Shown piece by piece: positions 1 to 29,164 of a DNA stretch of 32,180 bases (the stretch's first letter is position 1; every line of letters starts with the position of its first letter). The notes beneath the pieces are model-generated. The model did not search any database, was not told where the DNA came from, and was given only the letters and a program-made list of their open reading frames with translations. The translations under genes and the position numbers were made by a program. Source of the DNA: Nanobdellota archaeon (GTDB lineage Archaea; Nanobdellota; Nanobdellia; SCGC-AAA011-G17; GW2011-AR20); contig JBBSXG010000025.1 in NCBI GenBank assembly GCA_038045885.1, forward strand, positions 1-32,180. The letters run 5' to 3'.

Positions 1-1850
1 TTAATGCAATTAATTTGGTTATTGAAAATAAAGAAACTAATTTTGAAGAATTAATCAAAGTTATTCATGGTCCTGATTTTCCTACTGGGGGAATTATTTC
101 AGGAAAACAAGGAATTATAGAGGCATATAAAACAGGAAGGGGAAAAATTATTGTAAGAGCTAAAACAAAAATAGAACCAAGAAAAATTATTGTAGAAGAA
201 ATTCCTTATCAAGTTAATAAAACATTTTTAATTGAGAGTATAGCAGATTTAGTCAAAGATAAAAAAGTAGAGGGGATAAGCGATATAAGAGATGAAAGTG
301 ACAGGAAAGGAATGAGGCTAGTTATTGAATTAAAAAAAGATGTTAATGCTGAGATAATTTTAAATCAATTATATCAATATACTCAATTACAGGAAACTTT
401 TGGAATAATAATGTTGGCATTAGATGAAAATAAGCCTAAAATATTAAATTTAAAAGAATTAATTAATATTTTTATCAAGCATAGATTTAATGTTGTCACA
501 AAAAGAACTGAATTTGATTTAAATAAAGCTAGTAAAAGAGCTCATATCTTAGAAGGATTAAAGATTGCATTGCAAGATATAGATAATGTAATTACATTAA
601 TAAAACAAAGTAAAAATGCTGAAATTGCAAGATTTAGTTTAATTAATAATTATAATTTAACAGATGAGCAAGCTATCGCAATATTAGATACTAAATTACA
701 AAGATTAACTTCATTAGAACAGGATAAGATACAGCAAGAGTATAAAGATTTACTTGAATTAATAAAAAACTTAAATGAAATATTAGCAGATGATAAAAAA
801 ATATATCAAGTTATTAAAGATGAATTAAGTGAGATAAGATCTAAATACAAAGATGAAAGAAAAACATTAATTGAGGATGCAAGAGATGAAGTTTTATCAG
901 AGGATTTAATACAAAAAGAAGATGTTGTTGTTACAATGACTTATTCAGGATATATTAAACAAACATCTTTAACAGAATACAGACAGCAAAAACGCGGTGG
1001 CAAAGGAATTATAGCCACAAATATGAAAGATGAGGATATTGTAAGAGATTTATTTATTACAAACAATTTAAACACATTATTATTCTTTACAAATAAAGGA
1101 AAATGCTTCCAGTTAAAGACATATGAACTTCCATTAGAAGGAAGATATTCAAAAGGAAAAGCCATTGTTAACTTATTAAGATTAGAACAAGATGAAAAAG
1201 TAACTGCAATATTGCCAATAACAAAATTTGATGATAGTTATTTAATATTTGTTACTAAAAGAGGTGTTGCAAAGAAAACCTCATTAAAGGAATATGAAAA
1301 TCCTAGAAGTTCTGGATTAAACGCCATTAAATTATTAGACAAGGATGAATTAGTAAATGTTGTATTAACTTCTGGAAAAGATAATATAATTATTGCCACA
1401 AAACAGGGAAGTGCTTCAAGATTTAATGAAGCAGATGTTACAAGCGTTGGAAGAAATTCTTCTGGAGTTAGGGGCATTAAATTAGAACAGGGAGATGAAG
1501 TAATTGGAATGGAAAAAGCATTAGATAATTTAACATTATTAACAATCACAAGCAATGGTTATGGTAAGAGAACCAAGGTTGATGAATACAGGTTGATTAA
1601 AAGAGGCGGAAAGGGAGTTATTAATATATTAACAAAGTATTTGAAAAAAGACTCAAGAAATGAGGATGTTGTAACAATAAAAACTGTTTCTGATGAAGAT
1701 GAAATAATGTTGATAACAGAAAAAGGAATTACAATAAGAATGCCTGTCAAGCAAATTAATACAATAGGAAGAAATACTTCTGGAGTAAGAATAATTAAGT
1801 TAGAGAATAATGATAAAGTAAGTTCAGTAGCTAAAATAAGCAAAGATTAA
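1..1850 (+). CDS. gyrA: DNA gyrase subunit A, 5'-truncated by the window edge (end of the N-terminal domain plus the beta-pinwheel C-terminal domain)
   Basis: The frame is open back to nt 3 (..NAINLVIENKE..), and the tracked start at 15 is only a TTG. HGPDFPTGG and EAYKTGRGK motifs are present. Repeated C-terminal blades have basic/Gly turns (QQKRGGKG, GRNSSGVRG, RLIKRGGKG, GRNTSGVR). Confidence 0.93.
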   Translation, partial: NAINLVIENKETNFEELIKVIHGPDFPTGGIISGKQGIIEAYKTGRGKIIVRAKTKIEPRKIIVEEIPYQVNKTFLIESIADLVKDKKVEGISDIRDESDRKGMRLVIELKKDVNAEIILNQLYQYTQLQETFGIIMLALDENKPKILNLKELINIFIKHRFNVVTKRTEFDLNKASKRAHILEGLKIALQDIDNVITLIKQSKNAEIARFSLINNYNLTDEQAIAILDTKLQRLTSLEQDKIQQEYKDLLELIKNLNEILADDKKIYQVIKDELSEIRSKYKDERKTLIEDARDEVLSEDLIQKEDVVVTMTYSGYIKQTSLTEYRQQKRGGKGIIATNMKDEDIVRDLFITNNLNTLLFFTNKGKCFQLKTYELPLEGRYSKGKAIVNLLRLEQDEKVTAILPITKFDDSYLIFVTKRGVAKKTSLKEYENPRSSGLNAIKLLDKDELVNVVLTSGKDNIIIATKQGSASRFNEADVTSVGRNSSGVRGIKLEQGDEVIGMEKALDNLTLLTITSNGYGKRTKVDEYRLIKRGGKGVINILTKYLKKDSRNEDVVTIKTVSDEDEIMLITEKGITIRMPVKQINTIGRNTSGVRIIKLENNDKVSSVAKISKD

Positions 1851-2434
1851 TTTAAATATTTTAAAGCTAATTTTTTAAATCTTTTAGGATAAGATTTTAA
1901 ATAAGAATTAAGTTTATTTTTATTTATCTTTTTTTTAATATTATTTAAAACTTTTTTATCAACCTTTTCTTTAAAATAAATTATATCGATAAGAGTTTTT
2001 TCTAAATCAGAGTAAGGTAAATAAAAATTTCCTTGTTTATTATAATTAAATCCAAAAAGATATTTTTTATTTAATCTTCTAATTAAAACGTTTCCATCGA
2101 GTATTTCTCTTACTCCAGACCTAACTTTTCTAGAAGTTATTATTATAGGAATAGTTTCTTGCTCCCATAGATTATAAAAGCTTAAAGCATCCTGTAATCC
2201 CAAGTAAGAGGGTTTAAACGCGAAAACACTTATGGAATTATCATTATATCTGGTGTAATAACCCTTAGTTAATCTTTTAATTTTTCCTTTTAAAATTAAA
2301 TTTTTTATAAGATGTTTTGTATACTGTTTAACATTTTTTTTATATTTTACTATTAATTCTATAGAGTTATAATCAACAACAGGGCTTTTTGTAAATAATT
2401 CCTTTACTTTAATGAGATATTTTTGCTTTCCCAT
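1847..2434 (-). CDS. AbiEi-like winged-helix protein (putative type IV antitoxin / transcriptional regulator)
   Basis: The N-terminal region resembles an AbiEi wHTH ending in the ..G.I.RLTKGYYTR motif (family pattern: l.rv.rG.Y). Its start lies 1 nt after the stop of the upstream AbiEii-like gene. 195 aa. Confidence 0.5.
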   Translation of the reverse strand: MGKQKYLIKVKELFTKSPVVDYNSIELIVKYKKNVKQYTKHLIKNLILKGKIKRLTKGYYTRYNDNSISVFAFKPSYLGLQDALSFYNLWEQETIPIIITSRKVRSGVREILDGNVLIRRLNKKYLFGFNYNKQGNFYLPYSDLEKTLIDIIYFKEKVDKKVLNNIKKKINKNKLNSYLKSYPKRFKKLALKYLN

Positions 2435-2435
2435 T

Positions 2436-3071
2436 TTAAATATAATTTTTAATATAATCCAACATCTTTTCCACTCTAGGGATTAAACCTTCTAAAATTA
2501 AAATTTTTAATTCATTTTCATCTACAGGTTTTTTAAAATCTTTTACAAATTTTTGAAGATTGCTTTTTATTTTGCTATTGTCTTCTGCATATTTTAGCAA
2601 AAAAAAGATATCATATAAATCCCTAATCTTCAGCCTGTTTAAGTAAGCATTAATCTTCTCATTTACCAGTTCTTCTGCTGTTAAGGTATAAACACTAATA
2701 AAATTTCCTTCACTCGTTTCATAATCCTTTAATCTTCCATCTTTGTATTTAAAAATAGCTTCAAATCTAATATAGTTTCTATTTAATTCTAATTCAGAAT
2801 ATAGGCTATTTTCAGCTATTTTCTTTTTTACAATGGTAAATCCTTTTTTCTCTAAGTTCGAGAATAATATTTGTAGTTTATTAATATCTTTTTTCAGATA
2901 AACATCCAAATCTTCGCTGAATCTATTGCCTTTATAGCATCTCCATATAGCCGTACCACCATGAATTACTGCATTATTAAAAACTTTATAGAGTTCCTGA
3001 ACTAACAAATCCTGGGCTAAAGCTATATTCTTATGCAGTTCCTTCTTCAATTTTAGTATTATAGGGATCAT
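2436..3071 (-). CDS. AbiEii/AbiGii-family nucleotidyltransferase (putative type IV toxin)
   Basis: HGGTAIWRCYKGNRFSEDLDVY matches the hGG(T/S)Al...R.S.DlD signature of DUF1814/AbiEii NTases. I prefer the ATG at 3071 (MIPIILK..) over the tracked TTG at 3083. Confidence 0.68.
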   Translation of the reverse strand: MIPIILKLKKELHKNIALAQDLLVQELYKVFNNAVIHGGTAIWRCYKGNRFSEDLDVYLKKDINKLQILFSNLEKKGFTIVKKKIAENSLYSELELNRNYIRFEAIFKYKDGRLKDYETSEGNFISVYTLTAEELVNEKINAYLNRLKIRDLYDIFFLLKYAEDNSKIKSNLQKFVKDFKKPVDENELKILILEGLIPRVEKMLDYIKNYI

Positions 3072-3085
3072 TTTAATAATCAACC

Positions 3086-3578: not shown

Positions 3579-5738
3579 ATGGCAAAATCACAGAATATCA
3601 TAATGCTTGTAGGAATTTTAGTTATCCTCTTGTTAATGATAACTATCTTTCCATTGACTCAACCTAAATTAACTAATCAATATGGAGAGTTAAAGAAGTT
3701 TTCATCTTTGGAAGAATTAAATGAATTTTTAAAACAAACCCAAACACAGCCTAATTATATAAATACTTTAGATAGCATAACTCCAATGGCCGATGTTCAA
3801 AAATCAATTACAAGCGCAGAATCAAGTGGAAGTTCTAGTGGTTCAGTAGATTATTCACAAACTAATATACAAGTTCAAGGAGTTGATGAGGCAGATATAG
3901 TAAAAAATGATGACAAGTATATTTATGTTGCTTCAAGCGGAAAAATAAGTATAATTGAGGCTTATCCTGCAAATACTGCAAAGGTATCAACTGAATTAGA
4001 TATAAATGGAACTGCACATGAAATCTTTATTAATGAAAATAAGTTAGTTGTATTTGGATCTGAAAATTATTATGGGGGATCTGGCGGAGTAATGCCTTTA
4101 GAAAGAAAAGTAGCTTCTATTGCAATATTTCCTCCAATTTATTATGCTCCTCAATCTTTTATTAAAGTCTATGATATACAAGATAAAGAAAACCCAAAAT
4201 TAGAAAAAGAAGTTGTTTATGATGGAGATTATTATGATTCAAGAATGATTGATGATTATGTGTATGTAATTGCTAATCAGCCAATTAATTACAATAACGA
4301 GGTTGTAATGCCTATAATAAAAAATGATGATAATGAAGTTAAAATTGCTGCAGAAGATATTTACTATTTTAACGTGCCTTATTATGATTACAGATTAACA
4401 ACAATTTTTGCAGTTAACTTAGACAATTTAGAGTTAAATAAAAATAGTTTTTTAACAGGTTACTCACAAAATATATTTGTTTCAAGAGATAATATTTACT
4501 TAACAACACAAAAATATATTCCTCAAACAGAATATGAAGATTTAGAAGAAGAGATAATAAAACAGGGATTAATTCCTTTGGTGGATGAAAGCACGGCACA
4601 AAAAATAAGAAGTATATTAAATAAGAATGATAATATTTATGAAAAACAGCAAGAGATTCAAGAAGTACTTGCATCTTATTATAATAAATTAGGTTCAAAT
4701 GAGAAAGAAGATTTGTTAAAAGATTATGATAAAAGAGCTTTAGAAATAAGAGCTGAATTCCAAAAAAACTCTGAAAAAACCATAATCCATAAGATTTCTG
4801 TAAGTAATGATCAAATAGAATACAAAGCAAAAGGAGAAGTTTCAGGAAGAACATTAAATCAATTTTCAATGGACGAGTATCAAGGTAATTTCAGAATAGC
4901 CACAACAACAGGAGATACTTGGTCAGGAAATTCATTGAATCATGTTTATGTTTTAGATGAAGGAATGAGTATCATAGGAAAATTAGAAGATTTAGCAAGA
5001 ACAGAACAAATATTTTCAGTAAGATTTATTGAAGACAGAGCTTATCTTGTTACTTTCAAGAATATAGATCCTTTATTTGTTATTGATTTAAGCAATCCAG
5101 AAAATCCTGAAGTACTTGGAGAATTAAAAATTCCAGGATATTCAAATTATTTGCATCCTTATGATAGTACTCATATTATTGGAATAGGAAAAGAAGCTAT
5201 TGATTCAGGTGAAAATAGCAATTTTGCATTATATCAAGGAGTTAAACTAGCTTTGTTTGATGTTTCAGATGTTTCAAATCCTAAAGAAATAAGCAAATTT
5301 AACATTGGAGACAGAGGAACTGATTCACGAGCATTATACGAACATAAAGCATTTTTATTTAATAAAGAAAAAGAATTATTAGTTATTCCTATATCATTAA
5401 ATGAAGTAAATGCTGCAGATTACCCTAATGGAATTCCTGCTAATGCTTATGGTGAATTAACATTCCAAGGAGCTTATGTATTATCATTAAATTTAGAAGA
5501 TGGTTTTGAATTAAAAGGTAAGATAACCCATTTAACTGATGAAGAACTTGCTAAATTTGGCAAAGAAAGATATTATTATCCTAGTTATGGAAGCGAGATA
5601 ACAAGAAGTTTGTTTATAGATAATGTTCTTTATACAATCTCGAGTAAATATATTAAAGCTAATAGCTTAGATAATTTACAGGAACTTAATAAACTTAAGT
5701 TGCCTTTTGAAGAAAATATTTATTCTATACTTTATTAA
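3579..5738 (+). CDS. secreted/anchored beta-propeller domain protein (PF09826-like)
   Basis: N-terminal hydrophobic anchor IIMLVGILVILLLMITIFPL. Motifs VQGVDEADIVKNDDKYIYV, NQFSMDEYQGNFRIATT, FSVRFIEDRAYLVTFKNIDPLFVIDLSNPENP and GYSNYLHPYD match my recollection of the 'Beta propeller domain' family. Confidence 0.72.
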   Translation: MAKSQNIIMLVGILVILLLMITIFPLTQPKLTNQYGELKKFSSLEELNEFLKQTQTQPNYINTLDSITPMADVQKSITSAESSGSSSGSVDYSQTNIQVQGVDEADIVKNDDKYIYVASSGKISIIEAYPANTAKVSTELDINGTAHEIFINENKLVVFGSENYYGGSGGVMPLERKVASIAIFPPIYYAPQSFIKVYDIQDKENPKLEKEVVYDGDYYDSRMIDDYVYVIANQPINYNNEVVMPIIKNDDNEVKIAAEDIYYFNVPYYDYRLTTIFAVNLDNLELNKNSFLTGYSQNIFVSRDNIYLTTQKYIPQTEYEDLEEEIIKQGLIPLVDESTAQKIRSILNKNDNIYEKQQEIQEVLASYYNKLGSNEKEDLLKDYDKRALEIRAEFQKNSEKTIIHKISVSNDQIEYKAKGEVSGRTLNQFSMDEYQGNFRIATTTGDTWSGNSLNHVYVLDEGMSIIGKLEDLARTEQIFSVRFIEDRAYLVTFKNIDPLFVIDLSNPENPEVLGELKIPGYSNYLHPYDSTHIIGIGKEAIDSGENSNFALYQGVKLALFDVSDVSNPKEISKFNIGDRGTDSRALYEHKAFLFNKEKELLVIPISLNEVNAADYPNGIPANAYGELTFQGAYVLSLNLEDGFELKGKITHLTDEELAKFGKERYYYPSYGSEITRSLFIDNVLYTISSKYIKANSLDNLQELNKLKLPFEENIYSILY

Positions 5739-11041: not shown

Positions 11042-12451
11042 TTAAGAATTTTGATAATTAACAATCTGTCTCGAGATTTTTATTGAGTCTTCTTCTACTT
11101 CACCGATATAATTAGCAATCGTCTCATAGAATTTTAATATTAAATCTTGAGTAATTGGAGCCTTTAAAATTCTTTCAAATTTATTTGTAGTTAAATATTT
11201 TAAAGTTTCTCCCAAATCAGCAGAGTACCACGAGCTATAAAGATCATATTTGGGATTGTATTTTTTATAACTTTCATATATTTGTTTATTTTCTTCTTTT
11301 GATCTTAAAAGAATACCTTTTGCCATTGCTCTTAAATCTCTATAAACATTACATATCTTAAAAAAAGTTAGGAACTCTCTATTTCTTTTTAGTTCACGCT
11401 CTCCATTTTTAAATTCTGCGCCAAAACTATTTTCAATCCCTTCTAGTCTCTTTCCTCTATATAATTCGACTAAATCTTCTATAAAATCTCTTTGACTTGT
11501 TGATGTTGAAAATTCATCTGCATTTATTGCTACAGGATGTTTTATGGAATCTACTAAATCAAATAATTGTGGTCCGATAGAATATCCTGTTACATCAACA
11601 ACTTTAATTTTTGGTGTTTCTTTTCTCAAATCTTGTACATCCATTCTTAATATTTTTTCCAAATTTTTTCCAGGATATTTTAAAAAAACATGTCCTAAAT
11701 GCAAATCTGAATGTATTAACCTAATAAACATTTGTATATTCGGATTAAGCTCTTCATTAAGATAATTATCAATTCCTAAAAAGAATTTTCCAACAACTTC
11801 TTCCTCGCTTTTAGTTAATCTTTCGTCATGATAACTTAAAATGGCATCCAGATAATCATGCAATTTTTCTCTAAAATCAGTTTCTCTCCTAATGCCATAC
11901 AATTCATTTATTTTAGTTGGTAATTTAACGGCTAATCTAGAATGTTCATATGCTATAAGTTCTACTAGCCTCTTAATCAGATTTGTGTCTGGAGTTTTTT
12001 CCCTAAAAACAGCTTCTAGACTAATTCTACCTGCATCTTCTTCAATAACTTCTTTATTGTATCTTCCGTAAAACTTAACTAAGAATTTATCACCCCCCCC
12101 GTTATTTATGGGGCCGTGTACAAATTCATATAATCTACGTATATAGTCCACTAAATCTTCTCTCTCTTTATGCAATTTATTTTTTATATGGGAAAAATCT
12201 GTTCCAGGATAATCTGGTTTTAGATGTTTTACAATAACATCTAAGCTATCCTCTTTATCAGTATCATCTTTATAACGAACAACCATTCTAGCTATATTAA
12301 AATTCATGCTTAGTGCTGGAACGAGTTCTATATTAGAAATTTTTTGAATCTTTATCTCCCTGCGCATGCTTTTGCTAAGTAATGGTCCGAGTTTTCTCCT
12401 TAATATCTTCGGCCTTATCCCCAATTTTCTTAATTCTTTTGATGTAACCAT
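11042..12451 (-). CDS. APH/choline-kinase-fold phosphotransferase-like protein (maltokinase-like catalytic loop)
   Basis: LIHSDLHLGHVF resembles the HGDLHLGQ catalytic loop of maltokinase-type kinases. It is followed by KIKVVDVTG, a candidate metal-binding Asp. Confidence 0.5.
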   Translation of the reverse strand: MVTSKELRKLGIRPKILRRKLGPLLSKSMRREIKIQKISNIELVPALSMNFNIARMVVRYKDDTDKEDSLDVIVKHLKPDYPGTDFSHIKNKLHKEREDLVDYIRRLYEFVHGPINNGGGDKFLVKFYGRYNKEVIEEDAGRISLEAVFREKTPDTNLIKRLVELIAYEHSRLAVKLPTKINELYGIRRETDFREKLHDYLDAILSYHDERLTKSEEEVVGKFFLGIDNYLNEELNPNIQMFIRLIHSDLHLGHVFLKYPGKNLEKILRMDVQDLRKETPKIKVVDVTGYSIGPQLFDLVDSIKHPVAINADEFSTSTSQRDFIEDLVELYRGKRLEGIENSFGAEFKNGERELKRNREFLTFFKICNVYRDLRAMAKGILLRSKEENKQIYESYKKYNPKYDLYSSWYSADLGETLKYLTTNKFERILKAPITQDLILKFYETIANYIGEVEEDSIKISRQIVNYQNS

Positions 12452-12456
12452 TTTAA

Positions 12457-13419
12457 TTAGATTTTTTCAGAGTCTATAACAATCCTTGCGATATCTCTTA
12501 TGAAGCTCTCAATTCCTTTTAATTTTTCTAATATAACCCCCACACTTTTGTTATCACATATTTTATAAAGGTTTGTGCATGCATTTATTATCTCATCTTT
12601 TTTTGATGCTATATCATGCGCTAATTGTTTGTTATTTGAATAATAAGCTTTCATAACATTCAAATAACTTTTTTCTATGTCAAAGTATATTTTTTTTATT
12701 TCATTTTTTTCATTTTTCTTAATTTTTGCACTTCTTAAAAACCTAGAAATTCTTTTACATTCGTCTGCAATATCTTCTAAATTATTTATAACTAATCTAT
12801 AATACAATAACTCCATAAAAGAACGAACTCCCGGAAACATTTCTAATTTATTTGTTTTTAGAGATCTATTAATCGCACGATAGAGTAAGAATCTCACTTT
12901 ATTCACATTATTATCTGAGTAAGAGATATCCTCAAAATTATCTATCCCATCATTTATACTTTCTTTTAAGTCATTCATCATAGATCTCACAGTCAGATCA
13001 ATTCTCCTTATATTTTCAGGAATAGAAATTTCATTTAAATTAAGAAAATCTTTTGCAACAATTTTATTTGGAGTTTGCTCCATTACCTCTAAAACCAATA
13101 AATTCTTTAGAATTTCTTCAATATCTTTTCTATATCTTTTTAAATCCCCCATAATATTGATAATATCGATATCATTAATATAAGCATTCATTATCTCTCT
13201 TTGAATTGTAGAAGCTTCTTTATTGTTGACATTAATTGTTATTTCTTTCAATTGATGCTCTTCTTTTTTTAGCTCAGGATTTAAAATCAATTCTCCATTA
13301 CCATTTTCTTCAAAATAAATTAAATCTCCTTTTTTTAACTTATTTTTTTTAATCCAATTATTTGGAATTGAAATTACATGCGATGAATTCCCAAATTTTA
13401 TTAATTTTCTATATTCCAT
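12457..13419 (-). CDS. AbrB/SpoVT-domain plus PhoU-like regulator
   Basis: The N-terminus KFGNSSHVISIPNNWIKKNKLKKGDLIYF is a swapped-hairpin AbrB signature. LEDIADECKRISRF resembles the PhoU ERIgD...I helix motif. The 320-aa length fits archaeal AbrB-PhoU fusions. Confidence 0.62.
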   Translation of the reverse strand: MEYRKLIKFGNSSHVISIPNNWIKKNKLKKGDLIYFEENGNGELILNPELKKEEHQLKEITINVNNKEASTIQREIMNAYINDIDIINIMGDLKRYRKDIEEILKNLLVLEVMEQTPNKIVAKDFLNLNEISIPENIRRIDLTVRSMMNDLKESINDGIDNFEDISYSDNNVNKVRFLLYRAINRSLKTNKLEMFPGVRSFMELLYYRLVINNLEDIADECKRISRFLRSAKIKKNEKNEIKKIYFDIEKSYLNVMKAYYSNNKQLAHDIASKKDEIINACTNLYKICDNKSVGVILEKLKGIESFIRDIARIVIDSEKI

Positions 13420-22807: not shown

Positions 22808-23158
22808 TTATTTTTTTCTAAAACTAAGATAAATTAATAAGATTGCCCCAATAACATTAAATGAATCAGCCAAATTAAATACAGGAAATATGCTAATCTC
22901 AATAAAATCTCTTACATATCCTAAAAATATTCTATCCATCAAATTTCCTATTATTCCTGCTATTAAAAAACTTAATCCTAATCTTAAGTTTTTATCTTTG
23001 TAATAATAGATACATATTATTAAAACAATTAAACTAACGATGATTAGTAATGTAGTGTAACCTTGAAATAGGCCAAAAGCAGCACCTTTATTAATCGTTG
23101 TTGTTAATAAGTGCTTAGATATCTGATCAAGCAATAACAAGATAATTATAAGTAGCAT
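22808..23158 (-). CDS. lspA: lipoprotein signal peptidase (signal peptidase II), unusually short
   Basis: All LspA blocks are present: [34 protein letters not shown] and [15 protein letters not shown]. Only 116 aa. Confidence 0.8.
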
Positions 23159-23202: not shown

Positions 23203-24708
23203 ATGCAGTCTATTTTAGATAATAAAAAAGAGGAAAGTTCAGCTGCTGAGAAAATCCAAAAAATAAGAGATAAAGCAGCTTCTAAGAACATTAGTTACAA
23301 TTTAGTTTATGATTCTATTGGAGAAGGTATTGAGCCTATATATTTCTGGTTGTTAGATTTTTTGCAGGATAAAGAGCCTAGTGGACTGGGAATGGATGAG
23401 GTAATAAAATATAAAGATGAATATGAGGCTGCTGTTGGTTCAGGTTATTTCTCTGATTTAGGAACAAAAGCAACAAGAATGCAAGAACAGGCAATGAAGA
23501 TAATGGGTACAATAAATACTGTTATTAGAAGCGTAATTAATTTAGTCTACGATTTAAGAGAATTTGATATTAGGCTAGAAACTTATGATGATTTGAGATC
23601 AACTAACCCGGATAAAAAAGATGCTGCAGAAATCTCGTTAAGAGTTATATGGATGGACCAGGTAGATGTTAAAAGAGGGAGAGGAAGCATAAATGGATTA
23701 GCACAGCAATTACAGTTTGTTACCCTAAGAGATGCTTTCTTGTATGCAAAAGATGAAGCAGAAGTAGAAAAAATAGATTTAAATGAAAGAGTAAAAAGAA
23801 TATTAAAATCAAGATTAAGTGAATATCTGAAATGGAAATCATATTCAGAAAAAGAATTAAGAAAACGTTATAATATTGAAAAAGCTTATCTAAAATCGCA
23901 ATTTAATTCGCTAAAATATTATACCTCTTGGGTCAAGCCATACTTATTGGCTGCTAAAAAGTTAAATATGACTAATTTCTTGACGCAGTCTGGTTTGCCA
24001 AATCCTAACATTGTGAATATATTTAATAACATGGAAATAAAATTAAGTTTATTTGGAAAACAGGAGTTTAAGATAGAAAGTATTGATCCTAGATTAGCAA
24101 ATATAAAGTTAAATAATAAATATTATTCTTGTTTAGAAGTTGAAATGGTTTTTAGAACTGTTCCGAGAGCAACTCAATCGCAGCAAGGCACAGTTTACAT
24201 ACATTCGGGAAGAACAGATATTAACATGAGGGCATATTCATTTACAGAAAGAGAATTAGAAGAAATTAAGAAATTACAATTTGAAGAAGATATGGAATTA
24301 ATTGAAAATATGACAGATGTTAGTTTAAAAGAAATTCAAGATGATATTGACAAGTATGTTTCAGGTAAAGAGCCAAGTGTAGAAGAAAAGTTAAATTATC
24401 TTAATTCTTTGCTAAAAAAAATAAATGACAGAAGTGCTGCCAAGGAGATTACAGCTGAAATAAAAAAACTTGAAAAAAATTTTTCTCAAAAAGTTGCCTG
24501 GGAAAATCCTTTCAGTGGATTATTGGGAGGATTTGGACAGGCTTTCAAAGCATTTGGAAATTTAAAGAGCTTTTTCAAATATAAAATTGCTGTAGATGAA
24601 GAATATTATGAAAAACTAGCGAGAGACTCGGCAAAAAAAAGGGCAGAAGAATTATGTTATGTATTATATGATGTGTATAAGAAGACACATGGAATGATGA
24701 CTTGGTAA
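23203..24708 (+). CDS. hypothetical 501-aa mostly helical protein with a C-terminal amphipathic Gly/Phe/Lys helix
   Basis: Long ORF with TATA-like boxes 15-35 nt upstream (leaderless-like). NPFSGLLGGFGQAFKAFGNLKSFFKYK lies near the C-terminus. No catalytic motif recognised. Confidence 0.7.
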   Translation: MQSILDNKKEESSAAEKIQKIRDKAASKNISYNLVYDSIGEGIEPIYFWLLDFLQDKEPSGLGMDEVIKYKDEYEAAVGSGYFSDLGTKATRMQEQAMKIMGTINTVIRSVINLVYDLREFDIRLETYDDLRSTNPDKKDAAEISLRVIWMDQVDVKRGRGSINGLAQQLQFVTLRDAFLYAKDEAEVEKIDLNERVKRILKSRLSEYLKWKSYSEKELRKRYNIEKAYLKSQFNSLKYYTSWVKPYLLAAKKLNMTNFLTQSGLPNPNIVNIFNNMEIKLSLFGKQEFKIESIDPRLANIKLNNKYYSCLEVEMVFRTVPRATQSQQGTVYIHSGRTDINMRAYSFTERELEEIKKLQFEEDMELIENMTDVSLKEIQDDIDKYVSGKEPSVEEKLNYLNSLLKKINDRSAAKEITAEIKKLEKNFSQKVAWENPFSGLLGGFGQAFKAFGNLKSFFKYKIAVDEEYYEKLARDSAKKRAEELCYVLYDVYKKTHGMMTW

Positions 24709-24739: not shown

Positions 24740-25369
24740 ATGGATGTTAAAGAAATATTAAAGAACTTAGAGAAATTAAAAGGCAATGAAGTTAAAATAA
24801 AGTATCTTAATGAAATATTAAAAAAAATAGAAGATAAAGATTTAATTGAGGAAATAAAAGAATTAATCCAGGAATTAGAAGATAATTTGGAGTCAAAAAT
24901 AGAAGATGTAATAATTCCTGCATCAAGAAGACGTAAAATGGAATTAGATGAAGTTGAGAGTGATATCGAAACTCAAGGAAGACAAGTTGTAAGACAGAGA
25001 CAATTGCCGAGGCAACAAATAATACTTCCAAGAGACGAGGAGGATAAAGAAACAAGATATAATATTGCTCCAAGATATGAAACAAAAACACAACAAACTT
25101 ATCAAACTGCACAATTATTTACAACCTATGAGAACATGTCCCAGCAGTCACAGACAAATGCTAGATTAATAGAAGAAGTATTAATAAAAGAAAGAGATTT
25201 TGATATTGGAAACGCAATAAGTGAAAATCAAAGAGAAGAAATTCGAGATACGATTGATAAGTTCATGCCAAATGCGTCTGTAGAAGAAAGAATAAAAACA
25301 GAGCAGCAAGTGTTTTATGACATGAAGTTAAAAGATAAAAACTTAAAATATATTGCGAAACTAAGATGA
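24740..25369 (+). CDS. hypothetical 209-aa charged, Gln-rich protein
   Basis: N-terminal coiled-coil-like region, a central Q/R/T-rich low-complexity stretch (QGRQVVRQRQLPRQQ..TKTQQTYQTAQ), and an ATGA overlap with the next gene. Confidence 0.6.
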   Translation: MDVKEILKNLEKLKGNEVKIKYLNEILKKIEDKDLIEEIKELIQELEDNLESKIEDVIIPASRRRKMELDEVESDIETQGRQVVRQRQLPRQQIILPRDEEDKETRYNIAPRYETKTQQTYQTAQLFTTYENMSQQSQTNARLIEEVLIKERDFDIGNAISENQREEIRDTIDKFMPNASVEERIKTEQQVFYDMKLKDKNLKYIAKLR

Positions 25370-27291
25370 TTAACCCGTTTAAATCAAAATATGAAGGAAG
25401 TCTAGACTCGAGTTCTGTTCCACAATATGCTCTAGGAGCTCCGACTAGTCCTCAGACAGCAAATCAGATAGCAGAAGCAACAGCAAGATTAAATGCAGGA
25501 GTTTTTGGAGTTGATTTAGCATTAATTGATGAAAGATTATTTGAACAAATTCCTAAACAGCATTTTAAGGAGATTGAAAGGTTAATGACATTAACTGGAG
25601 CAAAGGCAACTATCCACGGTCCTATTATAGATTTAGCAGGATTTTCACAGCAAGGATGGCAGGAAGAAAGCAGAAGAGAAAATGAAAGCAAAATGAAATA
25701 TTATATGGATATGGCTCATGAAGTTGATAGCAAAGGAAATACCCCTTTAAATTTTCATATTAATACGGCAATGATTGGAGAACAAAAAAGAAAATTAAGC
25801 AACGATGAATACAAAAGTTTAAGCGAAGAAGAAAGAGAAACTGTTAAAGAAATTTTTAACCCACTAACTCATAGAAAAGAGTATGAAGTTGTCGAGGTTG
25901 TAGGAGCAGTTGATAGAGAAACTGGACAGATAGCTCCACTAAAACGTGAGATAAAGCAATATCCTGGAAGAGTTAAAGTCTGGGAGCCTTATGAGAGATT
26001 AGACAATTTAAATCAGACACAATGGGATCAGGAAAGATTAAAAATATTTCAATTACAACAGCAAAAAGCAGAGATCATGGATAGAATTGTAAATTTAGAA
26101 AGACAAGCACATCCTCTAAGAGTTGGAGAAGAAAAAGGAGTTTTGTCTACAGATGAAACTAGAATGTTACAAAATATAGACAAAAATAAGAATTTATGGA
26201 TTTCTCACATTAATGAATTAAATCAACATATTTATACTGGACTAAATGAAGTTTATAATAATCTACAGTATTATACAGAAAAAGAAGATAAAGAAAAAGC
26301 TATAAAATTGAGAAAAAGTATAGATAAAGGTTATAAAGATTATGATAAAAGATTTAGTGAACTTGTTGATAAATCGCATAAACAAAAACTAACAGAGGCA
26401 GAGGGTTATGAAGCCAGTAATATGGGAGATTTACAATATAGAGAATTACAGCTTTCTTTAGATAAAGTTGGAAACCCTCAACACAAAAAAGACAAAGATT
26501 ATTTGCCTGCACCCCAAAAATATATTCCTACAAATCAACTTGCGTTAGAAAAAACAGCTGAAACAGTTGCGAATGTTGTTTTTGATTCTTATAATAAGTA
26601 TAAAAATAATTCTCCAATATTATTACTAGAGAATTTATCGCCTGAAGGAACCTTAGGAAGTGCACAGGATTTAGTTAACTCAGTTGAAGAATCAAGAAAG
26701 AAATTAATTCGTAAATTAATGAAAGAAAAAGGTTTAGATGAAGATAAAGCCAAAGATGTTGCAGAAAAATTAATTGGAGTAACATGGGATGTGGGTCATA
26801 TTAATTTCATGAGAAAACATGGATATTCAGAAGCAGATGTTTTACGAGAAACCGAAAAAATTTCTCCTTATGTTAAACAAGTTCACATTACAGATAACTT
26901 TGGATTTAATGATGCTCACTTGCCTCCTGGAATGGGAAATGCTCCTATCAAAGAAGAAATGGAATTAATTGCTAAGGAAATGAGAAAAAAGGGGTTAGAT
27001 TTTAAGAAAGGGAGTGTAATTGTAGAAGCTGGATCATTTGTAGGACAATTTAAAGAAAATCCTCATCCATATGCACTAGAATATTTTGAATCGCCATTAT
27101 ACACTTACAAAAACATGCCTGTGTGGAAGGATGTATGGGAAACAGAAGGAAGTTATGGATTAGGATATGGACAAATATTGCCAGAACAACATTTTGGAAT
27201 GTATGGAGCAGGATTTTCAAATCTTCCAACAGATCTTGGAGGGCCGATTAGTCAAGATAGATCGAGATTTGCAGGAACTCCAAACGCATAA
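25366..27291 (+). CDS. endonuclease IV / xylose-isomerase-like TIM-barrel protein interrupted by a ~250-aa charged insertion, with a Gly/Tyr-rich tail
   Basis: Ordered blocks are ATIHGPIIDLAG, LNFHINTA, [insertion aa ~140-390], ILLLENLS, GVTWDVGHINF, VKQVHITDN, NDAHLPPGMGN and VIVEAG. They parallel the metal-ligand strands of AP_endonuc_2-fold enzymes. Confidence 0.68.
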   Translation: MINPFKSKYEGSLDSSSVPQYALGAPTSPQTANQIAEATARLNAGVFGVDLALIDERLFEQIPKQHFKEIERLMTLTGAKATIHGPIIDLAGFSQQGWQEESRRENESKMKYYMDMAHEVDSKGNTPLNFHINTAMIGEQKRKLSNDEYKSLSEEERETVKEIFNPLTHRKEYEVVEVVGAVDRETGQIAPLKREIKQYPGRVKVWEPYERLDNLNQTQWDQERLKIFQLQQQKAEIMDRIVNLERQAHPLRVGEEKGVLSTDETRMLQNIDKNKNLWISHINELNQHIYTGLNEVYNNLQYYTEKEDKEKAIKLRKSIDKGYKDYDKRFSELVDKSHKQKLTEAEGYEASNMGDLQYRELQLSLDKVGNPQHKKDKDYLPAPQKYIPTNQLALEKTAETVANVVFDSYNKYKNNSPILLLENLSPEGTLGSAQDLVNSVEESRKKLIRKLMKEKGLDEDKAKDVAEKLIGVTWDVGHINFMRKHGYSEADVLRETEKISPYVKQVHITDNFGFNDAHLPPGMGNAPIKEEMELIAKEMRKKGLDFKKGSVIVEAGSFVGQFKENPHPYALEYFESPLYTYKNMPVWKDVWETEGSYGLGYGQILPEQHFGMYGAGFSNLPTDLGGPISQDRSRFAGTPNA

Positions 27292-27333
27292 TTTAAATAC
27301 TAAATAAAATTCGTAAAACAAAAGAGGTTGATA

Positions 27334-28131
27334 ATGTTGAAACAAGTTGTTAATAAAAAAGAGCTTACAAAAGATTATGATATTGCTTATGATTTCTCAA
27401 CTAAAGTTTATGAAAAATTTAAAGATGTTATCAAAAGCATAGTTCTATTTGGAAGCACTGCAAAAGAAACTCAGCAGCATAGATCAGATATTGACATTAT
27501 AATTATCGTAGATGATGCAACAATTCAATGGACTCAGGAGCTTGTAGCTTGGTACAGGCAGGAACTAGCAAGATTAACAGCTTCTTTAAGATATCCAAAA
27601 AAATTGCATGTTAATACAGTTACATTAACAACATTTTGGAATGAAGCTATTGTTGGGGAGCCTGTAGTAATTAATGTCTTAAGATATGGAATAGCTTTAA
27701 TTGATTTTGGCGGATTTTTTGAACCATTAAAAGTATTATTAGCTAGAGGAAGAATAAAGCCAACTCCAGAAGCGATCTATAACGCTTTAACTAGAAGTCC
27801 AATTCACCTGTCTAGAGCAAATATGTACTTATTAGGAGCAATAGATGCAGTATATTGGAGCATGGTTGATAGCGCACATGCAGCATTAATGTCAGCAAAA
27901 CAAGTTCCACCAAGTCCAGAGCATATTTCTTCGTTATTAAAACAATCTTTTGTAAAGAAAGGAATGTTAAATTCTAAATTTGTAGATTGGTATGAAGAAC
28001 TTTATGCATTAGCTCACCATATTACACATGGAGAAGTTAAACGAGTTACAGGAAGAAATATTGAATTGTATATGGACAGGGCAGATAAGTTTATCGGAGA
28101 AATGGCTAATATAATAAAACAATTAGAATAA
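27334..28131 (+). CDS. nucleotidyltransferase-domain protein with a C-terminal helical (degenerate HEPN-like) domain
   Basis: VLFGSTAKETQQHRSDIDIIIIVDD carries the GS...DxD minimal NTase motif. The C-terminal half is helical and lacks a clear Rx4-6H. I prefer the ATG at 27334, with AGAGGT ~8 nt upstream. Confidence 0.68.
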   Translation: MLKQVVNKKELTKDYDIAYDFSTKVYEKFKDVIKSIVLFGSTAKETQQHRSDIDIIIIVDDATIQWTQELVAWYRQELARLTASLRYPKKLHVNTVTLTTFWNEAIVGEPVVINVLRYGIALIDFGGFFEPLKVLLARGRIKPTPEAIYNALTRSPIHLSRANMYLLGAIDAVYWSMVDSAHAALMSAKQVPPSPEHISSLLKQSFVKKGMLNSKFVDWYEELYALAHHITHGEVKRVTGRNIELYMDRADKFIGEMANIIKQLE

Positions 28132-28429: not shown

Positions 28430-29164
28430 TTAAGAAGCTTTTTTCTCAGCTTCTTTTTGTTCTTTCTTGAATTCTTTTATCGCTTTTGTGTTTGAGTAGA
28501 TTACTGCAGCTTTGTCAATGTCCTTCATGAATTCTTTTACTTTCTTTTCATCAAGTTCGTAGCCTGTAACTTTCTTGTCTTTATCCTTGATTTCTTTCAT
28601 GAATTGACTTGCATACATTCTTGCATATAAGCTCTCATGTCTATTTCTGTAATCCCCAATGTTACCTCTAGCACTAAAGTTCATGCTTACGCCTAAGTCA
28701 TCTGCAGCATCTTCTTGAGCATATTCGTCTGCTTGTCCTTGACCTAGTTTAGGAGCATCATATAGTCCAGTTAAATAAGTTGCTAGTTTAGCAGCTGCTT
28801 CAGCACCATTTTTGACGCCTTTTAATTCTCCTTTCATTTCTGAAACAACTTCTTCTAGTATCTTTTCTTTATCTCCTCCATTATAGAGGGGTTGTGTTTC
28901 ATTGATTTTATCTTGCTTATTTTCTAAAGCATATCTAACTGCTTCTTCCGGACTTACCCTAATATCTCCATAAGCTTCCTTATATCGTCTATTACGCAAT
29001 GCAGGATCTTGAATTTCAGAGGCAGCTAATCCAGCTAAATTTTTATATAATTGATAACGTTCTGTATTACTACTAGATTTTTCTAAACCTCTAGATAAAC
29101 GAGTATAAGCTCCTATTTGTAATAATCTCTCCTCTAACTTTGGTTGATTTTGTTCTTGTATCAT
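28430..29164 (-). CDS. hypothetical 244-aa Ala/Gly/Lys/Glu-rich soluble protein
   Basis: GGAGG sits 9 nt upstream of the ATG. The composition is visibly different from neighbouring genes (more GC-rich codons). No TM segment or known motif. Confidence 0.65.
   Translation of the reverse strand: MIQEQNQPKLEERLLQIGAYTRLSRGLEKSSSNTERYQLYKNLAGLAASEIQDPALRNRRYKEAYGDIRVSPEEAVRYALENKQDKINETQPLYNGGDKEKILEEVVSEMKGELKGVKNGAEAAAKLATYLTGLYDAPKLGQGQADEYAQEDAADDLGVSMNFSARGNIGDYRNRHESLYARMYASQFMKEIKDKDKKVTGYELDEKKVKEFMKDIDKAAVIYSNTKAIKEFKKEQKEAEKKAS

Follow-up and report, generated by a model that had tools for sequence, protein, structure and literature searches.

A TIM-barrel protein of Woese-, Pace- and Nanoarchaeota with Endo IV-type metal-ligand positions, a large insertion after strand beta4 and a conserved C-terminal tail

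The barrel gene and its family

The window studied here, that is, the whole stretch of 32,180 nucleotides (nt) of contig JBBSXG010000025.1 from the Nanobdellota archaeon assembly GCA_038045885.1, has a G+C content of ~29% and includes the genes of aIF2-gamma, aIF5B, GluRS, EF-1alpha, the ribosomal proteins S6e, S28e, L7Ae and S10, and a fragment of GyrA, a gene content that marks it as archaeal chromosome. The gene in question is a complete open reading frame (ORF) on the plus strand (25366–27291), which starts with ATG and encodes 641 amino acids (aa) according to the ORF listing; its product is referred to below as the barrel protein. It is the third member of a cluster of four genes, encoding in this order a 501-aa protein, a fast-evolving ORF of ~200 aa, the barrel protein, and a fused MNT/HEPN-like nucleotidyltransferase. 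The public sequencing runs in which the locus is found are DNA metagenomes of groundwater and drinking water only, with no RNA runs among them.

The barrel protein contains the blocks ATIHGPI (H84), LNFHINT (H131), ILLLENL (E422), VTWDVGHI (D475, H478), QVHITDNFG (H507, D510), NDAHLPPGMGN (D516, H518) and SVIVEAGS (E554), arranged in this order and followed by the tail GSYGLGYGQILPEQHFGMYGAGFSNLPTDLGGP. A sequence-only reading of the window had proposed such a series of endonuclease IV (Endo IV)-type blocks, and all the blocks that it quoted are present in the 641-aa translation in the order in which it gave them. The spacing between H131 and E422 is 291 residues, as compared with 36 residues between H109 and E145 in Escherichia coli Nfo (NC_000913.3), which corresponds to an excess of ~255 residues. 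The ~250 extra residues had been placed at nt 25780–26535 (residues 139–390), in agreement with the boundaries 134–388 obtained from AlphaFold2 (AF2). The protein is acidic in all its domains, with isoelectric points (pI) of 5.0–5.9.

Homologues of the barrel protein are numerous (587 at E<=1e-3 in a 90%-clustered protein database). The best 120 of them are nearly all 580–670 aa long, cover 96–100% of the query and show identities down to 34%; the shorter entries among these 120 are fragments, some of them labelled partial. The database names of the homologues vary between "AP endonuclease family enzyme [archaeon GW2011_AR20]", "sugar phosphate isomerase/epimerase", "TIM barrel protein" and "hypothetical protein", and the organisms named among the listed homologues are all Woesearchaeota, Nanoarchaeota or Nanoarchaeum sp. 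In a scan of one genome per species, a relative was found in at least 577 GTDB species; for the best 80 of these the labels are all Woese-, Pace-, Nanoarchaeota/Nanoarchaeia or just "archaeon", and the complete 829-kb genome CP010426.1 is one of the 80. A family profile compared with 1.84 billion representatives of clusters formed at 50% identity matched 534 clusters at E<=1e-30, 743 at E<=1e-10 and 1,185 at E<=1e-3, and the best 150 of the matched clusters are all family members, either of ~590–700 aa or N-terminally truncated fragments. The ORF is a real gene and not a chance ORF, because it has 587 homologues, relatives in at least 577 species and 534 matching clusters. The alignments indicate that the family, which is very large, is under strong purifying selection.

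No description of the family or of the gene cluster was found in the literature searched on MJ1311, 3WQO and DPANN endonuclease IV/TIM barrel topics. The Woese-, Pace- and Nanoarchaeota, ultra-small archaea that occur in abundance, have strongly reduced genomes and are distinguished largely by lineage-specific proteins of unknown function (PMC8204110). Castelle et al. (2021) described 51 families, the functions of which are for the most part unknown, as a module confined to Pace- and Woesearchaeota, and the barrel family is not named there (PMC8204110).

Barrel, insertion and tail

The AF2 model of the barrel protein, calculated from a 41-sequence alignment, has a mean predicted local distance difference test score (pLDDT) of 83.2 and a predicted template modelling score (pTM) of 0.80. 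Eight strands, assigned by DSSP, follow one another in the canonical order, and the putative ligands are located at or just past the C-terminal ends of the strands or in the b7-a7 loop. The N-terminal half of the barrel (residues 23–135, nt 25432–25770; all parts of the gene are given on the plus strand) comprises strands b1 (residues 23–26), b2 (48–52), b3 (80–84, ending in H84) and b4 (127–131, ending in H131), and contains the conserved motif GAPTSPQTANQ at residues 24–34. The C-terminal half (residues 389–581, nt 26530–27108) begins with helix a4 (389–415) and continues with b5 (418–422, with E422), b6 (470–475, with D475 and then H478), b7 (503–508, with H507 and then D510) and b8 (551–553, directly followed by E554); D516, H518 and the PPGMGN segment are found in the b7-a7 loop. 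The pLDDT values in this half are 90–98 over most of its length and 68–88 at residues 511–581.

In a Foldseek search against the PDB, alignments of 539–577 columns bridge the insertion and superpose the model on D-tagatose/D-psicose 3-epimerases of ~290 aa (target template modelling (TM) score 0.63–0.67). Further matches are UlaE, YcjR, bacterial Endo IV (8axy, 8edd, 1xp3, 3aal) and the ASFV AP (apurinic/apyrimidinic) endonuclease. The Pfam family PF01261 (AP_endonuc_2) reaches 30.1 bits against a gathering cutoff of 31.1, within residues 461–535 only, and a precomputed PF01261 match is carried by most homologues. The sole PDB relative at the sequence level is MJ1311 (PDB 3wqo), found by HMMER with E=5e-5 for the single sequence and 4.7e-12 for the family profile. 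Its residues 61–117 align collinearly with the N-terminal half (weakly when taken alone, 5.9–6.8 bits) and residues 180–254 with the C-terminal half; the matched segments include HAP, DIGH, VHAHDN and DDEHL, and six of the nine ligands are visible in the HMMER alignments. When the insertion was cut out in silico and the resulting barrel-only profile was searched against the PDB sequences, MJ1311 was again the only relative, the other matches being noise from leucine-rich repeats (LRR) and designed repeats.

By its modelled fold, the protein is thus a member of the xylose-isomerase-like (beta/alpha)8 TIM barrel superfamily. The sequence-only reading had treated both halves as one split barrel, and this is borne out by the eight ordered strands at a pTM of 0.80, by the Foldseek alignments spanning both halves, and by the collinearity of MJ1311 with both. 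The objection that the halves are two unrelated domains fails, because AF2, Foldseek and MJ1311 all join them.

The conservation of the ligands and of the insertion was followed in 81 sequences (80 loci and the window) of 33–70% identity, and that of the protein segments in the 41-sequence alignment. H84, H131, E422, D475, H478, H507, H518 and E554 are each found in 81 of the 81 sequences, and D516 in 80, with a single D516E replacement; D510 is also invariant (81/81). In Endo IV, nine His, Asp and Glu residues bind three metal ions, and we take their positions in Nfo to be H69, H109, E145, D179, H182, H216, D229, H231 and E261, following Hosfield et al. (1999). The translated E. coli Nfo indeed holds H, H, E, D, H, H, D, H and E at these positions. 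The earlier proposal of metal-ligand residues conserved among homologues therefore stands, with near-total invariance at all nine Endo IV-type positions and not just at four of them.

The correspondence with Nfo was established by two programs. With the full family alignment, hhalign matched the LNFH strand only, because the insertion breaks the alignment. The barrel-only profile gave a collinear match through seven ligands with E=0.12 (single-sequence template), a value that is not significant alone; the paired blocks are LNFH/LNFH (H109), LLEN/VIEN (E145), WDVGH/IDTCH (D179, H182), VHITDN/MHLNDA (H216) and DAHLPPGMGN/DRHHSLGEGN (D229, H231). In a MAFFT alignment, H69, H109, D179, H182, H216, D229 and H231 of Nfo coincide with H84, H131, D475, H478, H507, D516 and H518. 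The MAFFT placement of E145 and E261 fell on non-conserved Glu residues and was discarded. Taken together, hhalign and MAFFT align eight of the Nfo ligands residue for residue, E145 by hhalign alone and H69 by MAFFT alone.

The structural matches also bring forward another enzyme class. As a sugar or sugar-phosphate isomerase/epimerase, the protein would bind one Mn or Co ion through E422, D475, H507 and E554, with the insertion as a lid or an oligomerisation arm. The best Foldseek matches (D-tagatose/D-psicose 3-epimerases, UlaE, YcjR) are of this kind, the JGI and NCBI names of many members, including 'sugar phosphate isomerase/epimerase', point the same way, MJ1311p has itself been described as 'D-tagatose 3-epimerase-like', and the four positions are present and invariant. 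Single-metal epimerases of the xylose-isomerase-like fold have the E-D-H-E subset only, but the presence of this site is non-discriminating, because it is contained in the Endo IV set. What does discriminate are H84, H131, H478, D516 and H518, superfluous for a single metal and nevertheless invariant in the 81 sequences bar the one D516E. Furthermore, the barrel protein obtains 18.1 bits with the NCBIfam model of fructoselysine 3-epimerase, the cutoff of which is 305, and a universal rare-sugar epimerase of 640 aa would have no evident pathway context beside a nucleotidyltransferase and two orphan proteins, in small genomes with limited metabolism (PMC8204110). An epimerase is, on this balance, unlikely.

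In the AF2 model, the insertion (residues ~134–388) branches off immediately behind H131, where b4 has its C-terminal end on the catalytic face, and rejoins the barrel at helix a4. Its first part (residues 136–207, nt 25771–25986) is a mainly beta-sheet subdomain with pLDDT of 85–96, built of strands 139–144, 161–165, 170–183, 189–193, 195–199 and 202–206 and short helices 146–150 and 154–157. It contains a semi-conserved VNQETGQ motif with G187 (69/81), and only 1 of its 72 positions is conserved at >=90%. The second part (residues 208–366, nt 25987–26463, pLDDT ~76–95) forms four long antiparallel helices (208–256, 262–303, 306–338 and 344–366). N216 (81/81) and W220 (80/81) are situated at the foot of the first helix, close to the exit of the insertion from the barrel, and may contribute to the surroundings of the active site. 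A return linker (residues 367–388, nt 26464–26529), with P383 kept in 80 of 81 sequences, leads into the barrel helix a4.

The insertion measures 188–275 aa in the 41 proteins of the alignment and 189–275 aa across the set of 81 sequences. Conservation is lower here than anywhere else in the protein, reaching >=90% in the 41-sequence alignment at G187, N216, W220 and P383 only, and searches of Pfam, NCBIfam and the PDB sequences with the insertion returned only noise. The insertion is a trait of the whole family and not a peculiarity of the window gene; it occurs in every member examined, all 81, and is therefore older than the divergence of the sampled lineages, a dating left by the sequence-only reading to an alignment of homologues. 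That reading had described a K/E/Q-rich coiled coil, of a size and at a position not recognised from described family members. No counterpart was found in Pfam, NCBIfam, the PDB or the literature searched. Residues 208–366 do form long helices, but the insertion is more than a coiled coil, since residues 139–206 are mainly beta-structured.

The C-terminal tail (residues 582–641, nt 27109–27288) is predicted to be disordered, with pLDDT <50 in the AF2 model. Its consensus is PYW..G.Y..GYG..LPEQHF..YG.GFS.LP.ELGGQ..GD.SRFAGTP, and it is the most conserved segment of the protein, with 16 of 60 positions (27%) conserved at >=90% as compared with 20% in the barrel halves. The tail had been regarded as low-complexity, a description that has to be abandoned, as its composition entropy of 4.06 bits equals that of the barrel and its conserved fraction is the highest of any segment. 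Within 848 kb of related loci, each locus has a single copy of the core motif G[FWY][SAT]x[LMVI]Pxx[LMVF][GA][GA], always inside the barrel gene. A shared C-terminal sorting signal was considered and rejected, given this confinement and the lack of a transmembrane segment after the motif. Conservation combined with predicted disorder in isolation suggests instead that the tail is probably a docking or fold-on-binding peptide.

The conserved gene cluster and its surroundings

The four genes introduced above lie at a conserved chromosomal site among translation genes, and form an operon-like module by start/stop overlap, a 36-nt spacer and synteny. The same order is seen in three distant loci (36–56% identity), where a protein of ~470–530 aa and one of ~170–200 aa, both without a Pfam domain, are followed by the barrel protein and an NTP_transf_2 protein. 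Synteny was surveyed in 83 related loci, of which 70 could be evaluated upstream of the barrel gene and 63 downstream.

The gene of the 501-aa protein (23203–24708, plus strand) belongs to a lineage-specific family without a Pfam domain. In 63 of the 70 evaluable loci a homologue is encoded on the same strand upstream of the barrel gene, and the family has 606 homologues, all without a Pfam domain and all from the same archaeal lineage. Its AF2 model (pLDDT 75.5, pTM 0.55) shows long helical hairpins and a sheet of long strands; Foldseek found no match at E<=0.001 in the PDB or BFVD, the best target TM being 0.32 for a partial alignment. Matches of the START/Ups1/CoxG lipid-binding type had probabilities <0.2 and were set aside.

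The next gene, the fast-evolving ORF (24740–25369, plus strand, 209 aa), ends with a TGA that overlaps the ATG of the barrel gene (ATGA, a 4-nt overlap). In 65 loci this position before the barrel gene is taken by an ORF of 132–253 aa, the sequence of which is hardly conserved. In the window, its product is acidic, begins with a coiled coil, is rich in Q in its middle part, and has no match in Pfam, NCBIfam or PADLOC. An antisense ORF of 101 aa inside it (24807–25112, minus strand) is probably spurious.

The nucleotidyltransferase gene (27328–28131, plus strand, probable start ATG at 27334) follows the stop codon of the barrel gene after the 36-nt spacer, which contains a GAGG motif. Its product combines NTP_transf_2 and Polbeta (Pfam) with a UPF0332/HEPN-like domain. 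In 57 of the 63 evaluable loci a nucleotidyltransferase gene follows the barrel gene on the same strand, mostly <350 nt away, with 52–79% identity in the 12 loci listed. The best 120 homologues (~194–364 aa) are 54–96% identical, so that this protein is more conserved than the barrel protein; those named among them are labelled Woese-, Pace- or Nanoarchaeota or archaeon, and the JGI name is 'predicted nucleotidyltransferase/UPF0332 family'. The match to the NCBIfam model of MntA is weak. PADLOC gave only generic MNT-type matches for the nucleotidyltransferase and none for the barrel, 501-aa and 209-aa proteins, and a reading as a defence island was rejected with PADLOC blank for the barrel protein and both upstream proteins.

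The pairing of a nucleotidyltransferase with a possible phosphodiesterase allows for a nucleotidylylation switch, in which the former would add a nucleoside monophosphate to a target, perhaps the 501-aa or the ~200-aa neighbour, and the barrel protein would act as its 'eraser' by hydrolysing the phosphodiester. This would be a special case of a phosphoesterase with a substrate other than nucleic acid, where arm and tail recognise the modified protein. The nucleotidyltransferases of the MNT type AMPylate partner proteins, as in MntA/HepT, and the one here is highly conserved in the same lineage as the barrel protein, next to it and on the same strand in the 57 loci mentioned; an acidic barrel without an obvious DNA-binding surface would suit such a task. 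The proposal is, however, drawn from gene order alone, and this order may in part be inherited, as the regional synteny reaches unrelated housekeeping genes (such as GluRS). Moreover, in three loci, L001 (GW2011_AR20-type), L002 and L006, other genes or extra DNA lie between the barrel and nucleotidyltransferase genes, and we know of no de-nucleotidylylase with the Endo IV fold. We regard an eraser role as improbable.

The co-conservation of the barrel protein with the 501-aa protein, with its orphan fold of coiled coils and beta-sheet, leads to a further alternative: a structural or scaffolding pseudo-enzyme, in which the metal serves stability, and the long helical arm and the conserved docking-type tail join with the 501-aa protein in an assembly peculiar to the lineage. 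Pseudo-enzymes usually lose their catalytic residues, whereas here the nine ligands and D510 are invariant or nearly so and the arm is the least conserved part, which makes a mere scaffold highly improbable.

Wider synteny includes GluRS in 14 loci and a short signal-peptidase-II-like gene in 43 of the 83 loci; part of the gene order in the cluster may thus be inherited rather than functional. In the window, the latter gene (22808–23158, minus strand) is divergent from the cluster and encodes a 116-aa protein similar to signal peptidase II (LspA, Peptidase_A8; E=8e-26). Archaea do not usually have a lipoprotein signal peptidase of the bacterial type, and a typical LspA is longer than 116 aa. 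In the GW2011_AR20-type locus, the barrel gene is preceded ~5 kb upstream by the gene of an HhH-GPD DNA glycosylase (559–1164, minus strand of that locus). The corresponding region of the window yielded no glycosylase, and the association of glycosylase and barrel is therefore not conserved. A scan for sigma-70 promoters gave results at chance level, and the sigma-70 consensus is not applicable to an archaeon. A palindromic hairpin at 28432–28455, with an 8-bp stem and T-runs flanking it on both strands, overlaps the 3' end of a convergent 244-aa gene, lies just past the 3' end of a 91-aa gene, ~300 nt after the nucleotidyltransferase gene, and may be a bidirectional terminator for the cluster.

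At the left end of the window, the C-terminal part of DNA gyrase A enters (15–1850, plus strand), with a DNA_topoisoIV domain and six GyrA C-terminal beta-propeller repeats. Beside it, an AbiEii-type nucleotidyltransferase toxin of 215 aa (2436–3083, minus strand) adjoins a 195-aa ORF without a Pfam match (1847–2434, minus strand), and the two (1847–3083) are probably a type IV toxin-antitoxin/abortive-infection pair. Further inside, a 719-aa protein (3579–5738, plus strand) matches Pfam Beta_propel (PF09826) over nearly its full length (E=7e-158). A 469-aa ORF without a Pfam match (11042–12451, minus strand) has a 23-nt overlap with the 3' end of the aIF5B gene and adjoins a gene for a 320-aa fusion of an AbrB/MazE-type DNA-binding domain and a PhoU domain (12457–13419, minus strand).

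Proposed function and closest known systems

The reading that we tentatively favour, with a probability of about 0.45, is that of a phosphoesterase of the Endo IV/MJ1311 type with a multinuclear metal site, a lineage-specific beta-platform and helical arm on the catalytic face and a partner-docking tail, which probably works together with its co-conserved neighbours. In the mechanism that we infer, the barrel protein would supply the catalysis in a gene module restricted to Woese-, Pace- and Nanoarchaeota. Two or three divalent metal ions would be bound at the C-terminal face of the barrel and would support hydrolysis of a phosphoester, the likeliest substrate being a phosphodiester or a 3'-blocking group on a nucleic acid. 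The beta-sheet platform and the four-helix arm may cap, gate or extend the substrate site, or hold a partner protein, and the tail would fold onto a partner, either another subunit or the 501-aa protein. The analysis itself shows the fold, where the insertion sits, how far the ligands are conserved, the distribution of the family and its synteny, whereas the binding of metal, the hydrolytic chemistry, the class of substrate and what arm and tail do belong to the proposal. The term 'Endo IV-like' describes the signature of the active site as seen in the alignments; membership of the Nfo family and AP-endonuclease activity go beyond the evidence.

Several observations weigh against a phosphoesterase, some of them against a classical AP endonuclease in particular. 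The equivalence of E554 and Nfo E261 was assigned from its position after b8 and its invariance, and is supported by no alignment tool, so that it should be regarded as putative. HMMER profile searches of the PDB link the family to no Endo IV chain, no NCBIfam nuclease or Nfo model matches the barrel protein, the hhalign comparison with Nfo is non-significant alone (E=0.12), and ketose 3-epimerases rather than nucleases head the Foldseek matches. We know of no activity for MJ1311p. The DNA-wedging Tyr72 of Nfo corresponds to Ile87 here (MAFFT, in a weak alignment), the acidic domains offer no obviously basic DNA-binding surface, and the insertion, modelled over the catalytic face, could prevent the docking of a DNA duplex in the manner of Endo IV.

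There is also a bolder version of the proposal. The four proteins of the cluster would be an undescribed molecular machine, universal in and specific to Woese-, Pace- and Nanoarchaeota, with an Endo IV-type trinuclear-metal phosphoesterase rebuilt, by means of the helical arm and a docking tail, for a substrate other than duplex DNA, for which a nucleotidylylated protein, an RNA end and a host-derived phosphodiester compound are candidates. We hold this to be rather doubtful; if true, the module would be tied to the reduced, host-dependent lifestyle of these archaea.

The retention of the family in at least 577 species, the intact nine-residue site and the conserved cluster suggest an important function. 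If the protein proves to be a phosphodiesterase, as in the favoured reading, it would offer the first access to the function of the MJ1311-type branch among Endo IV-like enzymes, and it could be the missing or an alternative AP-endonuclease or end-cleaning enzyme of these archaea. Should it act on another substrate, it would be a case of a DNA-repair active site repurposed via a large insertion on the catalytic face.

In respect to known systems, the sequence matches indicate that the nearest solved relative is MJ1311p, the 'D-tagatose 3-epimerase-like protein' of Methanocaldococcus jannaschii, and not Nfo or a sugar epimerase; it is also the nearest insertion-less relative identified. MJ1311p shares the motifs HAP, (F/W)D(I/V)GH, VH..DN and D.(E/A)HL.(I/P)G.GN with the barrel family. 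It is, however, a single-domain protein of 293 residues, without the ~250-aa insertion after beta4 and without the conserved tail of ~60–90 aa, its matched blocks are separated by 63 residues as compared with 87 in the barrel family even with 250 removed, and it comes from a methanogen, not from Nanoarchaeota. The nine zinc ligands of Endo IV are reportedly conserved in MJ1311p, and the DNA-binding groove is said to be absent.

Nfo (E. coli b2159) has in common with the barrel protein the barrel fold (Foldseek), the strand order and the ligand positions (eight aligned, E261/E554 by position), as well as the local motifs LNFH, (I/L)EN, D..H, H(L/I).D and D.H..G.GN. It is compact, with 285 aa as compared with 641 aa here and a ~250-aa insertion on the catalytic face, and the barrel protein departs from the Nfo family both in sequence similarity and model match and in the compact DNA-kinking architecture. 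The ketose 3-epimerases (D-tagatose/D-psicose 3-epimerase, UlaE, YcjR) are the best structural match (target TM 0.63–0.67), with 8–16% identity, and share the E-D-H-E set; they use one metal, have neither insertion nor tail, and their curated model scores far below its cutoff on the barrel protein (18.1 bits vs 305). The fold and the type of active site are familiar, and the protein makes a well-defined and expressible target.

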